A DNA stretch of 64,000 bases from Escherichia coli (lineage in GTDB: Bacteria > Pseudomonadota > Gammaproteobacteria > Enterobacterales > Enterobacteriaceae), in the NCBI RefSeq assembly GCF_046105845.1, contig NZ_CP151004.1, one strand, 5' to 3'. The position numbers and the translations under genes were made by a program. Within the stretch, counting starts at the first letter, position 1, and every line of letters starts with the position of its first letter. Below are positions 10,401 through 60,778 of this stretch, in pieces. The notes below the pieces were generated by a model. The model was not told the DNA's origin, made no database searches, and saw nothing but the letters and a program-made list of their open reading frames with translations.

Positions 10401-12041
10401 TCACACTGTAGCGAAACTAACTGGTTCACCAGCTCCGCGAGGTACTGCCGACACGGAATGTTTGTTCAGACGAAATACGTCCACCGCCTCAGCTAATCGT
10501 GCCGCCTGTTCTTCAAGGGACACCGCCGCCGCTGAGGCCTCTTCTACCAGAGAAGCATTCTGTTGCGTCACCTTATCCATTTCAGAAATCGCCTGGCTAA
10601 CCTGCGTTATGCCCCTACTTTGCTCATCCGAGGCGGCGGCAATTTCCTGCATGATATGTGTGACACTCGCGACGGCATCAACAATAGTGCTCATGGTTTT
10701 CCCGGCCGTGGCCACCTCATCCGATCCCAGGTCAATTAACCTGACTGATTCACTGATCAAGCCTTCAATCTCTTTCGCCGCCTGAGCGCTGCGGCTTGCG
10801 AGTGTCCGTACTTCGCTGGCGACAACGGCAAATCCACGCCCTTGCTCACCCGCTCGCGCGGCTTCAACGGCAGCATTCAGTGCCAGAATATTCGTCTGGA
10901 AAGCAATACTGTTGATGACGGCGGTGATCTCAGAAATTTTCTTCGAACTCGTGGAGATAGCGCCCATCGTTTTTACTACACCGGAAACCGTCTGCCCGCC
11001 ATTGCAGGCTTTAATAGAAGCCTCTTGCGCCAGTTTGCTGGCATGATGCGCGTTATCTGCATTCTGTTTCACCGTCGCAGTAAGTTGCTCCATGCTGGCG
11101 GCAGTTTGTTCGATAGCCGCCGCTTGTTCTTCGGTGCGAGATGACAGGTCCGCATTGCCAGCTGAAATTTCGCTGGTGCCACGATAAATCTCTTCCGCAC
11201 CCTGTCGAACAGTCCCTACTGTCATCCCCAGTGAATGCTGCATTTGCTGTAAATGACGACTTAAGCGACCGATTTCATTACGACCTGCCGGATCATCATT
11301 CATCGTCAGATCGCCACTGGCGATTTTTTCAATCCGTTGTGCGGCATGTTGCAGTGGACGAATGACAATCCGACGTAGCACCATAAATGTTATCAGTGTC
11401 ATGACCAGGGCAAGCACAAACGCGCCAATCATGAACATCCCACCCAGGCGGGTGCGCTGATGGGCCAGTTCCGCCAGTTGGTTGGCTCTGGTGCTACGTA
11501 TCTTAACGGCTTTGCTCAAAATATCGGTATAAGCATTATCCAGCGGTCGGATCTGCTCACTTTCATGATTGATAATCGCTTCAAACATGCCATTTTTGGC
11601 ATATTTCAACATCGGTTGCATACCCGTGATATAAGCCTGGAAGCGTTGATTTAATTCAGTGTCGAGGGCTTCATCAGCAGGTGTTTTCACCGACCGATTC
11701 TGATAAGCACGATACCCTTGCTGCGACTGTTTAATCTCCGATTCGGCTTGCGCAATATTTCGCTTCATTGCTTCCATTTCCGCAATACGACTCGCTGCCC
11801 CGGCCTGAATCATATTGACCCGGGCTGAACGCAAAAAATCTGAACTGTTCGCTAACCCGGTCCGAATCTCAATTTCCGCAGTAACATCCCGCTGATCGCG
11901 ATCGGCCTGCCAGAGGAAATAGCCAGCCAGAGCTGAACTTAATGCGAATAGAACTAAGATACCGCCAAGAATGCAGGCAAATAACGGAACCAGCCTGATG
12001 TGATGCAAAAAACCTAATCGCTGTGAGGGAGTTGTATTCAT
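10401..12041 (-). CDS. trg: Methyl-accepting chemotaxis protein III (ribose/galactose sensor) Trg
   Basis: 546-aa ORF with MCP signalling domain and methylation region ([21 protein letters not shown]); K-12 synteny. Confidence 0.93.
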
Positions 12042-55142: not shown

Positions 55143-56756
55143 TCAATGCTTCACAATATACATAGTCCGACTGTACGCCACATCTTCCGGGTTATTAATG
55201 GGATAACCTTTCAGCCACGGCTTGATTAATCGTCCATTGGTATATTGATAAATTGGTGCAATCGGTGCTTGCTCCATGAGGATTTTTTCTGCCGCGTTGT
55301 AATCGGCATTACGCGCTTTAACGGTATTTTCCGTCGATGCCTGGGCCAGAACTTTGTCATATGCCGGATTGTTAAAGCGTGAAATATTCCCGGAATGCGT
55401 TGACGTTAATAATGTCAGGAAAGTGGAGGGTTCATTATAATCCCCTACCCACGAGGCGCGGATAACATCAAAATTGCCGGTATTACGGCTATCGATATAG
55501 GTTTTCCATTCCTGGTTTTGCAATTTAACATCTACGCCCAGGTTCTTTTTCCACATCGATGCTACAGCAATCGCAATTTTTTGATGGTTTTCTGAAGTGT
55601 TATACAAAAGCGTCAGCTTCAGCGGTTTTTGCGGACCATAACCAGCGGCGCTCAACAAAGTTTTTGCCTGCGCATTCAGTTCTTCCTGACTCATTTGTTC
55701 AAACGGCGAAGGCTCCGGCGTAAAACCGGCAGTAACATCTGGTGTAAAATGCCACGCTGGCTTTTCCCCCGTCCCCAACACTTTTTCGGTCATCAGGCGG
55801 CGATCTATCGTCATACTTAATGCCAGGCGAACACGCTGATCGGCCGTCGGCCCTTTTTGCGTGTTAAACGCATAATAATAGGTCCCGAGCTGCGGCGGCG
55901 TATAAACCTGCCCCGGAATATCCTTCAACAGCTTCTGATACATATTTTTCGGGAAGGATTCGGTGATATCAATATCCCCCGCGAGGTAACGCTTAGTGGC
56001 TGCGGATTCCTGATTAATTGGCAGGAAGGTCACTTTTTGCAGTACCGTTTTGGCGTTATCCCAATAATGGGTATTCGGTACCACGACCAGTTTTTCATTG
56101 ACTACGCGCTCTTTAAGAACATAAGCGCCATTGCCGATCAGTTTTCCGGGTTTCGTCCACTCTTTACTGCTTTCTACGTTGGCTTTTTGCACCGGGAAGA
56201 AGGCAAAGTTAGCGGTTAAATTCACAAACCACGGCAACGGTTTATCAAGCTGAATTTTCAAAGTATGGGCATCAACTGCGGTGACGCCAAGCTGGTCAGG
56301 CGTAGCTTTACCATCAATAATCGCCTGTGCGTTGTTGATTCCCGCCAGCGCGGCAAACCATGCAAATGGCGATAGCGTTTTCGGGTCCACCAGACGCTGC
56401 CAGCTGTAGACAAAATCTTGCGCCGTTACCGGTGTGCCATCCGCCCATTTTGCGTTATCGCGCAGGGTAAAAGTCCAGATACGGTTGTCATTACTTTTCC
56501 ACTGAGTCGCAACGCCGGGGACAATCTCCCCTTTCTCGTTCTGATTCACCAGTCCTTCAAACAGATCGCGAATGACCTGTATCTCCGGCAGGCCCACGGC
56601 TTTAGCGGGATCCAGCGACGCTGGCTCATCTTTAATGTGGCGCACCAGCTCCTGCTTCTCTGCCAGTACTGTGCCGCTCGGAACTTCTGCAGCATACGAA
56701 AGAGAAATGCTGCTGACCAACAGCGCACAACACGTGACTGAAACAGAGTGCTTCAT
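55143..56756 (-). CDS. mppA: Periplasmic murein tripeptide-binding protein MppA (OppA paralog, SBP family 5)
   Basis: Start trimmed to MKHSVSVTCCALLVSSISLSYA (signal peptide); 537 aa. Confidence 0.9.
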   Translation of the reverse strand: MKHSVSVTCCALLVSSISLSYAAEVPSGTVLAEKQELVRHIKDEPASLDPAKAVGLPEIQVIRDLFEGLVNQNEKGEIVPGVATQWKSNDNRIWTFTLRDNAKWADGTPVTAQDFVYSWQRLVDPKTLSPFAWFAALAGINNAQAIIDGKATPDQLGVTAVDAHTLKIQLDKPLPWFVNLTANFAFFPVQKANVESSKEWTKPGKLIGNGAYVLKERVVNEKLVVVPNTHYWDNAKTVLQKVTFLPINQESAATKRYLAGDIDITESFPKNMYQKLLKDIPGQVYTPPQLGTYYYAFNTQKGPTADQRVRLALSMTIDRRLMTEKVLGTGEKPAWHFTPDVTAGFTPEPSPFEQMSQEELNAQAKTLLSAAGYGPQKPLKLTLLYNTSENHQKIAIAVASMWKKNLGVDVKLQNQEWKTYIDSRNTGNFDVIRASWVGDYNEPSTFLTLLTSTHSGNISRFNNPAYDKVLAQASTENTVKARNADYNAAEKILMEQAPIAPIYQYTNGRLIKPWLKGYPINNPEDVAYSRTMYIVKH

Positions 56757-57092
56757 AAGTTTCCCTCTAACCGACATTAAAATTGATGCGTAATTATTTG
56801 TTTCGCCTTAAAGGAATGCAAACAACTTCCATCAAAAAAGTGACAAAGGAAGCATCAAATGTTTTAAGTATCAATATATCAAATCAGATTTAGTGTAAAT
56901 AATAGTCTCCAAAATGCGGTAAAGCACATAGAACTCCGAACACTACGTTCGGGCTTCGCACGTTCAAACCCGTTTTCGGTATCATAATCAGCATCTGTCG
57001 CCATTGTACGAAGAATAAAAAATGACCAAAACGTTGAAAGGAACTGAGAATACGTTAAGAGAAGAATTAAATTAATGTATCAGCAAGTAGTG

Positions 57093-57992
57093 CTAAACAG
57101 CACCTTTATACTTCAGCCTATCTATAAATAATGAGAATGCCGAGCCTGCATGTCGACGGTGTGGATAGTACAGGTGATAACCGGGTAAATCTGGTGTGAA
57201 TTTATCCAAAACACGTATCAGTTTTTTTTCTTTAATAGCCCGCTCAACCTGATCATAAGGTAGATACGCCAATCCATGCCCATCAATTGCAGCATCAATG
57301 ATCAGGTCTATCGTATTCAGTAAAAGCTGACCTTCCATGCGAACACGAACTTCACGTCCACCGCGTATTAATCTCCAGCGATTTGCTGTACCCGATGTGG
57401 GAAGATACAAATTAATTGCCTGATGATCTATTAATTGTGACACTGACGTTGGAGCACTTCGACGAGAAAAATAATCCGGTGAGCCAACAATAGCCATTGG
57501 TATATCTGGCCCGATTCGAATGGCGATCATATCTTTATCCATCTCCCCACCCAGACGGACGCCTGCATCAAAACGTTCAGAAACGACATCGGTCAAACCA
57601 TAATCAATGGTAAGCTGGATATCAATTTCAGGATGCGATTTCAGGAATGTGCGCATAGCTGGTAACAATATCGTTTTTGCTGCATGTTCTACAGTAGTAA
57701 TACGTATTGTCCCGGATGGGCGGTTCTGCAGATCGCTCAGGGATGTCAGGGCAGAATCTATGTCATGCAACATAGGGCCAAGAACAGACAAAAGATGCTC
57801 GCCCGCTTCAGTGGGAACAACGCTGCGCGTGGTTCGCGTCAGAAGCCGCAATCCTAATCGTTCTTCTATACGGCGCACTATCTGGCTTAAAGCTGACTGC
57901 GCCATGCTCAGGCGGGCTGCTGCGCGAGTGAAGCTACGCTCCTCTGCAACGACGACAAACGCCATCAGATCAGCGATTTCTTCACGCTTCAT
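57093..57992 (-). CDS. pgrR: LysR-family regulator YcjZ/PgrR
   Basis: 299-aa ORF with LysR HTH (FTRAAARLSMAQSALSQIVRRIEERLG). Confidence 0.85.
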   Translation of the reverse strand: MKREEIADLMAFVVVAEERSFTRAAARLSMAQSALSQIVRRIEERLGLRLLTRTTRSVVPTEAGEHLLSVLGPMLHDIDSALTSLSDLQNRPSGTIRITTVEHAAKTILLPAMRTFLKSHPEIDIQLTIDYGLTDVVSERFDAGVRLGGEMDKDMIAIRIGPDIPMAIVGSPDYFSRRSAPTSVSQLIDHQAINLYLPTSGTANRWRLIRGGREVRVRMEGQLLLNTIDLIIDAAIDGHGLAYLPYDQVERAIKEKKLIRVLDKFTPDLPGYHLYYPHRRHAGSAFSLFIDRLKYKGAV

Positions 57993-58129
57993 TCAGTATC
58001 TCCATACAATCTATTAATCATTTAAATGATAGGTCTAATCATGATTTTGGGTCTAATCAACTTAATGATCAATATCTATAGTGATATCACCAACCGTCAA
58101 AACGAACCGACAACTCCATGAGGAACGGA

Positions 58130-59050
58130 ATGATGAATAATAAAGTCAGCTTCACTAACAGCAATAATCCAACCATCTCTTTGTCTGCAGTGATCTATTT
58201 CCCTCCAAAATTTGATGAAACCCGTCAGTATCCGGCAATTGTGGTATCTCACCCAGGTGGGGGCGTTAAAGAGCAAACGGCCGGAACCTATGCCGAAAAA
58301 CTGGCGGAAAAGGGATTTGTCACTATTGCTTATGACGCATCTTATCAAGGTGAAAGCGGCGGCGAGCCGCGTCAGTTAGAAAACCCATACATTCGTACTG
58401 AAGACGTCAGTGCCGTGATTGATTACCTGACAACGCTTTCTTATGTCGACAATACCCGAATTGGTGCGATGGGAATTTGTGCCGGTGCAGGATATACAGC
58501 CAATGCTGCAATTCAGGATCGCCGCATCAAGGCCATCGGTACCGTTAGTGCGGTCAATATTGGTTCGATGTTCCGTAATGGTTGGGAAAACAATGTGAAA
58601 TCTATTGATGCCCTACCATACGTTGACGCAGGTTCAAACGCCCGAACCAGCGATATTAGCAGCGGAGAATACGCCACTATGCCACTGGCACCAATGAAGG
58701 AGTCCGATGCGCCGAACGAAGAACTGCGTCAGGCCTGGGAGTATTACCACACCCCTCGCGCGCAGTATCCAACAGCACCGGGTTACGCTACTTTGCGCAG
58801 CCTTAACCAGATTATTACCTATGATGCTTACCATATGGCGGAAGTGTACCTGACTCAGCCGATACAGATTGTGGCGGGCAGCCAGGCAGGGAGCAAATGG
58901 ATGAGTGACGACCTGTACGATCGAGCATCAAGCCAGGATAAACGCTATCACATTGTTGAAGGCGCAAACCATATGGATCTTTATGACGGCAAAGTCTATG
59001 TGGCTGAAGCAATTTCAGTATTAGCTCCGTTCTTTGAGGAAACTCTGTAA
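58130..59050 (+). CDS. ycjY: Alpha/beta hydrolase (dienelactone hydrolase-like) YcjY
   Basis: About 306-aa product; catalytic Ser motif GICAGAGY; start approximate. Confidence 0.82.
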   Translation: MMNNKVSFTNSNNPTISLSAVIYFPPKFDETRQYPAIVVSHPGGGVKEQTAGTYAEKLAEKGFVTIAYDASYQGESGGEPRQLENPYIRTEDVSAVIDYLTTLSYVDNTRIGAMGICAGAGYTANAAIQDRRIKAIGTVSAVNIGSMFRNGWENNVKSIDALPYVDAGSNARTSDISSGEYATMPLAPMKESDAPNEELRQAWEYYHTPRAQYPTAPGYATLRSLNQIITYDAYHMAEVYLTQPIQIVAGSQAGSKWMSDDLYDRASSQDKRYHIVEGANHMDLYDGKVYVAEAISVLAPFFEETL

Positions 59051-59120
59051 TGAAACATATTCAAATCCGCAATAGTGATATGGCCTGGCATATTACTGCC
59101 AATAATCTGGGAAAAGTTTC

Positions 59121-59759
59121 ATGAAAAATGTACTGATTCTTGGTGCTGGCGGTCAGATAGCCCGCCATGTGATTAATCAACTGGCAGATAAACAAACCAT
59201 TAAACAAACTTTATTTGCCCGTCAGCCAGCAAAAATCCACAAACCCTATCCAACTAATAGCAAGATTATTATGGGGGATGTACTGAATCATGCAACACTG
59301 AAGCAGGCCATACAGGGACAGGATGTTGTGTATGCCAACCTTACGGGGGAAGATTTAGATATTCAGGCAAATTCAGTGATCGCTGCGATGAAAGCCTGTG
59401 ATGTTAAACGTCTGATCTTTGTTCTTTCCCTCGGTATTTATGATGAAGTTCCAGGAAAATTTGGCGAATGGAATAATGCAGTTATTGGTGAACCCCTAAA
59501 ACCATTCCGCAGGGCTGCGGATGCAATTGAGGCTTCTGGACTGGAATATACAATTCTTCGCCCTGCCTGGCTGACCGATGAAGATATTATTGATTATGAG
59601 CTTACCTCACGCAATGAACCATTCAAAGGTACGATCGTATCACGTAAGAGTGTCGCAGCATTAATTACAGATATCATCGATAAACCTGAGAAACACATTG
59701 GTGAGAATATAGGCATCAATCAACCCGGGACTGATGGTGATAAGCCATTCTTCATGTAA
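59121..59759 (+). CDS. ymjC: NAD(P)-binding Rossmann-fold protein (NmrA/atypical SDR-like), intact 212 aa; corresponds to the ymjC/ymjD locus
   Basis: N-terminal GAGGQIARH dinucleotide-binding motif; single uninterrupted ORF between ycjY and mpaA. Confidence 0.7.
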   Translation: MKNVLILGAGGQIARHVINQLADKQTIKQTLFARQPAKIHKPYPTNSKIIMGDVLNHATLKQAIQGQDVVYANLTGEDLDIQANSVIAAMKACDVKRLIFVLSLGIYDEVPGKFGEWNNAVIGEPLKPFRRAADAIEASGLEYTILRPAWLTDEDIIDYELTSRNEPFKGTIVSRKSVAALITDIIDKPEKHIGENIGINQPGTDGDKPFFM

Positions 59760-60049
59760 ATCAATTATATAGCTACCATCGTACTGTACTATGTGCAGTA
59801 CGATTTATTAAACTTATTAAGGTGAACTGATCAATCAGATGCGATTAACATGTGTAGAACCAGTAAGAATAAAATACGCCATGTATATAACATTACGACA
59901 ATTCTAATATCTGCACATCAATGAAAATGCAAACAACTTCCGGCAAAAAGGTGATACAAGATCGATGACATAGCGTTGAAGAAAAGGATTTGATAATCCG
60001 CAAAATTTGCACAACACTGCCTGTAATACTTCCTGAACCAGAGACGATC

Positions 60050-60778
60050 ATGACCGTAACTCGCCCACGCGCCGAACGCGGCGCATTTCCGCCCGGAACA
60101 GAACATTACGGACGTTCATTATTGGGCGCGCCGTTAATCTGGTTTCCGGCCCCTGCAGCCAGTCACGAAAGTGGTTTGATTCTGGCTGGCACTCACGGTG
60201 ATGAAAACTCTTCGATCGTCACGCTCTCCTGTGCTCTGCGGACGTTGACACCTTCTTTGCGCCGTCATCATGTGGTGCTGTGTGTGAATCCTGACGGCTG
60301 CCAGTTGGGGTTAAGGGCCAATGCTAATGGTGTGGATTTAAACAGAAACTTTCCGGCGGCGAACTGGAAGGAAGGTGAAACCGTTTATCGCTGGAACAGC
60401 GCCGCTGAAGAACGTGATGTCGTATTGCTGACAGGTGACAAACCTGGCTCCGAACCTGAAACCCAGGCGCTGTGCCAGCTTATACACCGCATTCAACCTG
60501 CCTGGGTGGTCTCATTCCACGATCCGCTGGCCTGTATTGAAGATCCCAGACACAGCGAATTAGGCGAATGGCTGGCCCAGGCGTTTGAATTGCCTCTGGT
60601 AACCAGCGTCGGTTATGAAACACCTGGCTCTTTCGGTAGTTGGTGTGCGGATCTCAACCTACATTGCATCACCGCAGAGTTTCCCCCCATCTCCTCCGAC
60701 GAAGCCAGCGAAAAATATCTCTTTGCGATGGCAAACTTGCTGCGCTGGCATCCTAAAGATGCAATTCGCCCGTCGTGA
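60050..60778 (+). CDS. mpaA: Murein peptide amidase A (gamma-D-Glu-Dap amidase, M14 carboxypeptidase family)
   Basis: Start trimmed to MTVTRPRAERGAF (242 aa); zinc-ligand motif HGDEN. Confidence 0.85.
   Translation: MTVTRPRAERGAFPPGTEHYGRSLLGAPLIWFPAPAASHESGLILAGTHGDENSSIVTLSCALRTLTPSLRRHHVVLCVNPDGCQLGLRANANGVDLNRNFPAANWKEGETVYRWNSAAEERDVVLLTGDKPGSEPETQALCQLIHRIQPAWVVSFHDPLACIEDPRHSELGEWLAQAFELPLVTSVGYETPGSFGSWCADLNLHCITAEFPPISSDEASEKYLFAMANLLRWHPKDAIRPS

Follow-up and report, generated by a model that had tools for sequence, protein, structure and literature searches.

Genomic islets bounded by attL/attR-type repeats carry foreign genes between direct repeats at their junctions, have single-copy empty sites in relatives and in some conspecific strains, can be lost precisely to leave one repeat copy and undergo progressive decay of their cargo. 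Target-site duplications of transposons and insertion sequences similarly consist of target DNA duplicated in direct orientation on both sides of an insert; the known ones span 2 to 14 bp, and we know of no transposase that makes a 37-bp target duplication. The mppA-mpaA region of Escherichia coli resembles both systems. It holds foreign genes between direct repeats, has empty sites in relatives and in some E. coli strains, and shows cargo decay and a precise loss that left a single, chimeric copy. The locus differs from attL/attR-type islets in a size of only 3 to 4 kb, in having no integrase, transposase or tRNA target, in its location within a divergent promoter spacer and in a repeat that is imperfect (30 of 36 positions) from the earliest form seen; it differs from transposon duplications in a length of ~37 bp and in the lack of terminal inverted repeats and of a transposase. 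Of the known kinds, the best match was a small genomic islet between direct repeats that occurs naturally in empty, occupied and excised forms.

The islet also contains the gene for a described regulator. In strain K-12, PgrR controls the ycjY operon (ycjY-ymjDC-mpaA) from the pgrR/ycjY spacer (Shimada et al. 2013, as summarized in the accessible text of PMC5934670), and mpaA is reported there as the last gene of that operon (PMC5934670). The genes of this K-12 regulon are the same as those found here.

The window, a 64,000-nucleotide stretch of E. coli DNA, is 99.2% identical to E. coli strain LF82 in this region and contains, in order, mppA (murein tripeptide binding protein; 55143-56756, minus strand), pgrR (minus), ycjY (plus), a gene for an SDR/NmrA-type oxidoreductase (plus) and mpaA (murein tripeptide amidase; 60050-60778, plus), followed by ycjG and tpx. 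The initial annotation described a near-identical motif upstream of both mppA and mpaA, and this repeat was found to be real. Two copies were located on the plus strand in direct orientation at 56815-56850 and 59926-59961, with identity at 30 of 36 positions and an exact common core of 16 nt, AATGCAAACAACTTCC. The coordinates first given (56807-56842 and 59922-59957) had indicated the right place and were off by 4 to 8 nt. With the preceding A included, copy 1 (A-AATGCAAACAACTTCCATCAAAAAAGTGACAAAGGA; 56814-56850) forms the left junction of the insertion on the mppA side and copy 2 (A-AATGCAAACAACTTCCGGCAAAAAGGTGATACAAGA; 59925-59961) forms the right junction on the mpaA side. The start-to-start spacing is 3,111 bp, and the copies immediately flank the candidate insert. 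A search with up to two mismatches detected the core exactly twice in the window, while dinucleotide-preserving shuffles (n = 100) averaged 0.04 matches and never reached two. The likeness of the copies did not clearly extend beyond ~37 nt; weak residual similarity outside both ends may reflect a duplication of up to ~47 to 55 nt with decayed edges. The position upstream of both genes was upheld, with distances from the annotated starts revised to 59 to 94 nt for copy 1 (mppA ATG at 56756) and 89 to 124 nt for copy 2 (mpaA ATG at 60050). It was also correct that pgrR (57093-57992, minus strand) is encoded between the two copies.

The short length of the motif would, taken alone, be compatible with a chance match or with a member of a dispersed repeat family of the REP, BIME, ERIC or MITE-like kind. 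The genome-wide distribution spoke against this explanation. The 37-mer was present at 10,654 places in 5,418 E. coli genomes, with a median of 2 per genome (range, 1 to 4) and a single place in the listed empty-site strain. The motif is thus no generic repeat with many unrelated copies, and the dispersed-repeat explanation was rejected on the per-genome count. Together with the absence of shuffles containing two matches, of a matching Rfam family and of hairpin potential, these counts reduced the probability of a dispersed or accidental origin to practically nil.

As the copies sit in 5' regions, each could instead belong to a small-RNA or 5' leader module that was duplicated, as the initial annotation had proposed alongside a duplicated promoter. 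Folding of both copies on both strands gave energies within shuffle expectation (z scores of -0.41 to +0.75), and neither copy had an Rfam match; a structured RNA was rejected on these two results. Furthermore, copy 1 lies upstream of the predicted mppA -10 element and so would not be transcribed with mppA. A small-RNA module was therefore judged to be highly improbable. The promoter half of the proposal fared better in that promoter-region DNA has indeed been duplicated.

The history of the repeat was examined in relatives. The mpaA locus was taken from 80 species-representative genomes and its neighbors were located by tblastn, which gave 77 analyzable loci with both gene starts present. In 74 of these 77 species loci, mppA and mpaA were adjacent and divergent, with no pgrR, ycjY or SDR gene between them, and the spacer measured 182 to 192 bp apart from two outlier lengths. 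Genera with this empty site included Citrobacter, Enterobacter, Leclercia, Lelliottia, Kluyvera, Raoultella, Pluralibacter and others, and the site was likewise empty in the species closest to E. coli, namely E. albertii, E. whittamii and three representatives of cryptic Escherichia. Among the species loci, the E. coli arrangement was found elsewhere only in Escherichia sp. E1V33. Where the motif was recognizable in empty-site genomes, it was present in a single copy, located in most of them at -120 to -125 from mpaA, with outliers at -82 to -136 and one at -169 in a locus outside the 74 spacers. A double motif was seen only where the insert was present, in E1V33 and E. coli. The proposed test of conservation in other enterobacteria therefore pointed to one ancestral copy and not to two.

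Joining window positions 56757-56850 to 59962-60049, with 56851-59961 removed, gave a sequence of 182 nt that aligned base for base with the 182-nt spacers of five empty-site Escherichia loci (L001, L002, L004, L005 and L008). Because removal of the insert and one repeat copy restores this colinear 182-bp spacer, and because relatives have single-copy empty sites, the repeat was interpreted as a target duplication flanking an inserted cassette. The ancestral stretch of ~37 nt reads AAATGCAAACAACTTCCGGCAAAAAAGTGATACAAGA. Copy 2 of K-12 is identical to the single copy of Escherichia sp. L001, and copy 2 of the window has one difference from the ancestral form. Copy 1 has five differences from the L001 single copy (GG>AT, T>C, C>A and A>G), all within the insert-proximal 20 nt, and its AT/GTGACA form was present in all seven of the insert-bearing E. 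coli loci that were read. Both motifs thus have a common origin, as had been proposed, in being the two junction copies of one ancestral stretch, and their placement on the same DNA strand despite the divergence of the genes, which the initial annotation had also pointed out, is what a target duplication gives. Overall, direct copies flanking an insert, a colinear single-copy empty site and an independent foreign history of the insert were all found. These results indicated that the two motifs are very probably the left and right copies of ~37 bp of ancestral mppA-mpaA spacer DNA duplicated around a horizontally acquired cassette that entered the spacer in the E. coli lineage.

This history bears directly on the proposal that the motif is a shared operator for PgrR, or for another regulator of murein peptide recycling, kept similar by selection. 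The proposal has some appeal, since mppA and mpaA act in one pathway with pgrR between them, and the single ancestral copy has parts (AAATGCAAA and AAA..TGAT) that are conserved from genus to genus and may include a protein-binding site. However, PgrR arrived with the insert, and the motif predates it, being present in genera that lack pgrR at this locus; hence PgrR is not the reason for the existence of the motif. A LysR-type operator would be expected to co-occur with its regulator gene and to have an interrupted T-N11-A dyad conserved in both copies. The motif has no dyad symmetry: no inverted repeat was detected within either copy, and the sole near-palindrome, TTCCGGCAA, has been lost from copy 1, which reads TTCCATCAA. 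Seen from the gene that each precedes, the copies also have opposite orientations, lie at unequal distances and cover different parts of the upstream region. The initial annotation had called for comparison with published PgrR binding. The genomic SELEX peak for PgrR lies in the ycjY/ycjZ (pgrR) spacer, and none is listed at mppA or directly upstream of mpaA in the accessible text of PMC5934670; the local PgrR site region in the window is accordingly the pgrR/ycjY spacer at 57993-58117 and not the repeat.

The copies are, moreover, diverging. In O157, copy 1 carries further changes beyond GG>AT, T>C, (C>A) and A>G, and a G>A change in the copy 2 core was found in both O157 and SCU-124. Each copy appears, from these comparisons, to decay in its gene-distal half (the distal half of copy 1 and the core of copy 2), which is the opposite of what would be expected of a selected shared operator. 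A PgrR operator was rejected on the age of the motif and the location of the SELEX site, and we consider a selected operator for any recycling regulator to be very unlikely. Matches to CRP-, CytR- and sigma-E-like motifs were too weak to claim. Similarity by descent thus replaces the common regulator site that the initial annotation had suggested, and we infer that the copies are alike for this reason and not because one regulator binds both.

Parts of the duplicated stretch may be promoter elements. The mppA-proximal part of the ancestral spacer (56757-56813) contains the conserved block GTAATTATTTGTTTC, and the mpaA-proximal part (59962-60049) contains GGATTTGATAATCC and TTTGCACAACACTG. Across genera, the conserved spacer blocks were GTAATTATTTGTTTC, AAATGCAAA, AAA(A/G)TTGAT, GAAAC-ATTTGAT-A and TTTTGCACAACACTG. 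Read on the mppA strand, the first two give TTTGCA(T) and AATAAT, 17 to 18 nt apart. A consensus scan predicted a sigma-70 promoter for mppA at 56793-56822 on the minus strand, with a -35 element TTTGCA (56822-56817) inside the repeat core, an 18-nt spacer and a -10 element AATAAT (56798-56793); it was the sole promoter-like site called upstream of mppA. The predicted site has proper hexamer spacing and is conserved across species, with AAATGCAAA and the -10 block showing 90 to 99% conservation across genera and the two hexamer regions forming the most conserved blocks of the spacer. The repeat core would therefore correspond to the mppA -35 element, and the A-tract/TTGAT part, ~15 to 25 nt upstream of it, would be suitably placed for an UP element or an activator site. 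A literature search for an mppA promoter or transcription start site returned nothing useful.

On the mpaA side, the last two conserved blocks fall between copy 2 and mpaA, beyond the repeat, and form a candidate mpaA promoter on the plus strand with TTGATA (59990-59995), a 17-nt spacer and AACACT (60013-60018). This candidate was recognized by reading the sequence and was not called by the consensus promoter scan. GGATTTGATAATCC, which contains a GGATT/AATCC dyad in Escherichia, and TTTGCACAACACTG together (59985-60019) were the most conserved noncoding blocks upstream of mpaA in ~20 genera and are candidates for a promoter and/or a site for an unknown regulator. If these assignments are right, the duplicated stretch carries the mppA -35 element and the upstream A-tract, and mppA would have kept a complete promoter on copy 1, with the -35 element plus ~30 bp beyond it after insertion. 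The mpaA gene would have kept 124 bp of its own upstream DNA, from copy 2 onward, so that each flanking gene retained part of the old shared promoter region.

The inserted cassette itself spans 3,074 bp (56851-59924) and consists of a left noncoding arm, the LysR-type regulator gene pgrR, the alpha/beta hydrolase gene ycjY (58118-59050, plus strand), a stub of a second hydrolase gene, the SDR gene (59121-59759, plus strand; intact here and truncated to ymjC in K-12) and a right noncoding arm. The G+C content of the insert is 43.9%, compared to 49.1% for the window and ~54% for mpaA/ycjG. YcjY is 82 to 88% identical to proteins of Pluralibacter, Rhizobium, Agrobacterium, Mesorhizobium, Sphingobium and Burkholderia. 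PgrR is 79% identical to a Pluralibacter LysR protein encoded beside a ycjY homologue and 74% identical to a Rhizobium LysR protein, and the SDR protein is 65% identical to its counterpart in the Rhizobium cassette. The order of a divergent LysR gene, a hydrolase gene and a second hydrolase gene was also found in Pluralibacter gergoviae and on a Rhizobium plasmid (CP004016.1 and relatives), with a 211-amino-acid SDR gene added in the latter. On this plasmid (L089/L090), the cassette is located between IS21 (istA/istB) and three consecutive tyrosine-recombinase genes, which suggests that it travels on mobile DNA in alphaproteobacteria. Nucleotide homology to the Pluralibacter, metagenome-contig and Rhizobium cassette loci was confined to pgrR-ycjY and part of the SDR gene and did not reach the insert ends. 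The motif was absent beside these homologous cassettes, where the only hit was a three-mismatch chance match in the recombinase gene region. Overall, the cassette is foreign in origin and decaying, and it originally consisted of pgrR, ycjY, a second hydrolase gene and an SDR gene.

Two further observations concern the noncoding content of the insert. A partial pseudogene fragment annotated by PGAP as epoxyqueuosine reductase QueH is present at the equivalent place in the left arm of O157, ECO2947, UC4224 and SK6988; its equivalent in the window is ~56920-56995 (minus strand), overlapping a moderately stable hairpin at 56936-56952, and it is possibly a relic of the gene neighborhood of the donor. 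An Rfam match to RAGATH-10 inside the pgrR coding sequence (57538-57642, minus strand) reached only 24 bits where the gathering score is 41 (E = 0.32) and is almost certainly due to chance.

A third element lies at the right end, where a terminator-like hairpin (59778-59804, plus strand), with a 12-bp stem followed by UUUAUU, directly follows the SDR stop codon. Its predicted stability of -17.2 kcal/mol (z = -3.2) was reached by none of 200 shuffles. This hairpin is likely, on its predicted fold, to be an intrinsic terminator between the cassette and mpaA.

Decay of the cassette was evident in a comparison of E. coli strains. All four cassette genes were kept in ECO2947 and UC4224, including a full 933-bp second hydrolase gene. 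In O157:H7 the second hydrolase gene is frameshifted, and in the window it has been lost through a deletion of ~895 bp that left only the first ~54 nt of the gene, within 59050-59120; this stub may correspond to the K-12 remnant ymjD. A 666-bp deletion was detected in K-12 (L081) and in E1V33 (L003), extending from SDR codon 46 to within 1 to 2 nt of the left edge of copy 2 (window equivalent, 59260-59925). It removes the body of the SDR gene and the hairpin, and on the right it ends at the insertion junction, where there is AATA/AATGA microhomology. In SCU-124 (L096, 1194-2125), an internal deletion has joined the 3' portions of pgrR and ycjY, and both are pseudogenes.

Empty sites were also present within E. 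coli. The reconstructed empty site matched contiguously in 174 of 5,426 complete genomes (~3%). Most of these sites had the ancestral GG form, including those of IAI39, CE10 and ST648, which belong to phylogroup F; the ~150 GG sites may be ancestral or may be old excisions. An exact chimera was found in 10 empty-site genomes, in which the copy 1 AT was joined to the copy 2 or ancestral GTGATACAAGA-TCGAT. The chimeric query matched at 99% in four more genomes, and one of these that was read, CP131_Sichuan, had the same chimera, K-12-type flanks and the K-12 MppA and MpaA protein accessions. As insert-bearing genomes with the other right-flank haplotype (TCGATAAC) exist, both classes of chimera could be derived by a crossover between copy 1 and copy 2 within one chromosome. 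The chimeric single copies in at least 14 genomes, with copy 1 sequence on the left and copy 2 sequence on the right, constitute direct evidence that the cassette has been lost precisely through the repeats, probably more than once. The converse exchange may have occurred in E1V33 (L003, 5373-8000), which is a mosaic: in its outer flanks and in the left part of copy 1 the sequence is of the type of its own clade, and its insert is of the K-12 type. This pattern suggests that E1V33 gained the islet from E. coli through homologous recombination in which the crossovers fell at the repeats or close to them.

Neither a mobility gene nor a terminal inverted repeat nor any known att structure was found at the insert ends, and this lack of integrase, transposase and terminal inverted repeats leaves the interpretation of the repeat as an insertion footprint unaffected. 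An exact recent duplication followed by neutral drift is opposed by the differences in copy 1 at 4 to 5 of the 20 junction-proximal positions in all E. coli read; this excess may have resulted from error-prone repair at insertion, from relaxed constraint or from part of the copy having come with the incoming DNA. The duplication may have been made by fill-in of a staggered break, by Campbell-type integration of a circle that bore the patch, or by a site-specific recombinase that was subsequently lost.

The last of these would make the repeats attL and attR, produced when a lost tyrosine recombinase integrated a circular cassette whose attP shared a 37-bp identity segment. Direct repeats of tens of base pairs around foreign DNA are typical of integrase-mediated islands, the Rhizobium cassette adjoins three tyrosine-recombinase genes and IS21, precise loss of the cassette occurs, and the same spacer holds a different islet, with cdt-like genes, in Salmonella arizonae and diarizonae. 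On the other hand, none of the E. coli loci read had an integrase gene or remnant within the insert or close to it, the homologous cassettes of Pluralibacter and Rhizobium are not accompanied by the motif, direct repeats do not flank the Salmonella islet, and RecA or slippage between identities of 16 to 29 nt would account for the chimeric junctions equally well. An integrase origin was therefore considered to be unlikely. A further reading, in which the repeat is the recombination site of an unrecognized mobility system for small cassettes, mobilized in trans and reversible, with the duplication selected for re-creating both promoters, is decidedly improbable. Under such a system, tyrosine recombinases like the Rhizobium trio, acting in trans, would target the mppA-mpaA promoter spacer.

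The Salmonella islet was read in Salmonella enterica subsp. arizonae and diarizonae (L022, 4848-8000; L023, 4562-8000). The insert in the mppA-mpaA spacer measures 3.1 to 3.4 kb, replaces the mppA-proximal conserved block and contains three minus-strand open reading frames of 270, 275 and 191 amino acids, presumably a cytolethal-distending-toxin cdtABC cluster. A search for direct repeats flanking this islet found none. Given this second insert, the mppA-mpaA spacer may be a recurrent landing site.

Returning to the insertion footprint in E. coli, the state of the right arm may matter for regulation of mpaA. The K-12 allele lacks the SDR body and the hairpin, whereas in the window both separate the cassette from mpaA. 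Since K-12 has deleted the hairpin that stands between the SDR gene and mpaA, cotranscription of mpaA with ycjY, and hence control of mpaA by PgrR, may be favored by, or specific to, the K-12 allele.

In conclusion, the repeat lies outside any operator, small-RNA or dispersed-repeat family tested. It is a commonplace footprint of an insertion rather than a regulator site common to both genes, although it is of some evolutionary interest. A search of the accessible literature found no description of the repeat or of the insertion polymorphism. A conspicuous repeat is explained without new regulation: the cassette split the ancestral divergent promoter region of mppA and mpaA, and PgrR, the named regulator of peptidoglycan recycling, sits in a horizontally acquired, variably present and decaying cassette. 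The locus provides natural strain pairs, with the insert present, absent or excised, for studying how duplication of promoter DNA preserves gene expression on either side of an insertion. The main value of these findings is a rereading of the relationship between PgrR and mpaA and a clear case from nature of promoter-spacer DNA duplicated at an insertion. If this history is true, control of mpaA by PgrR in K-12 could be a by-product of the insertion and the later 666-bp deletion rather than an evolved circuit.
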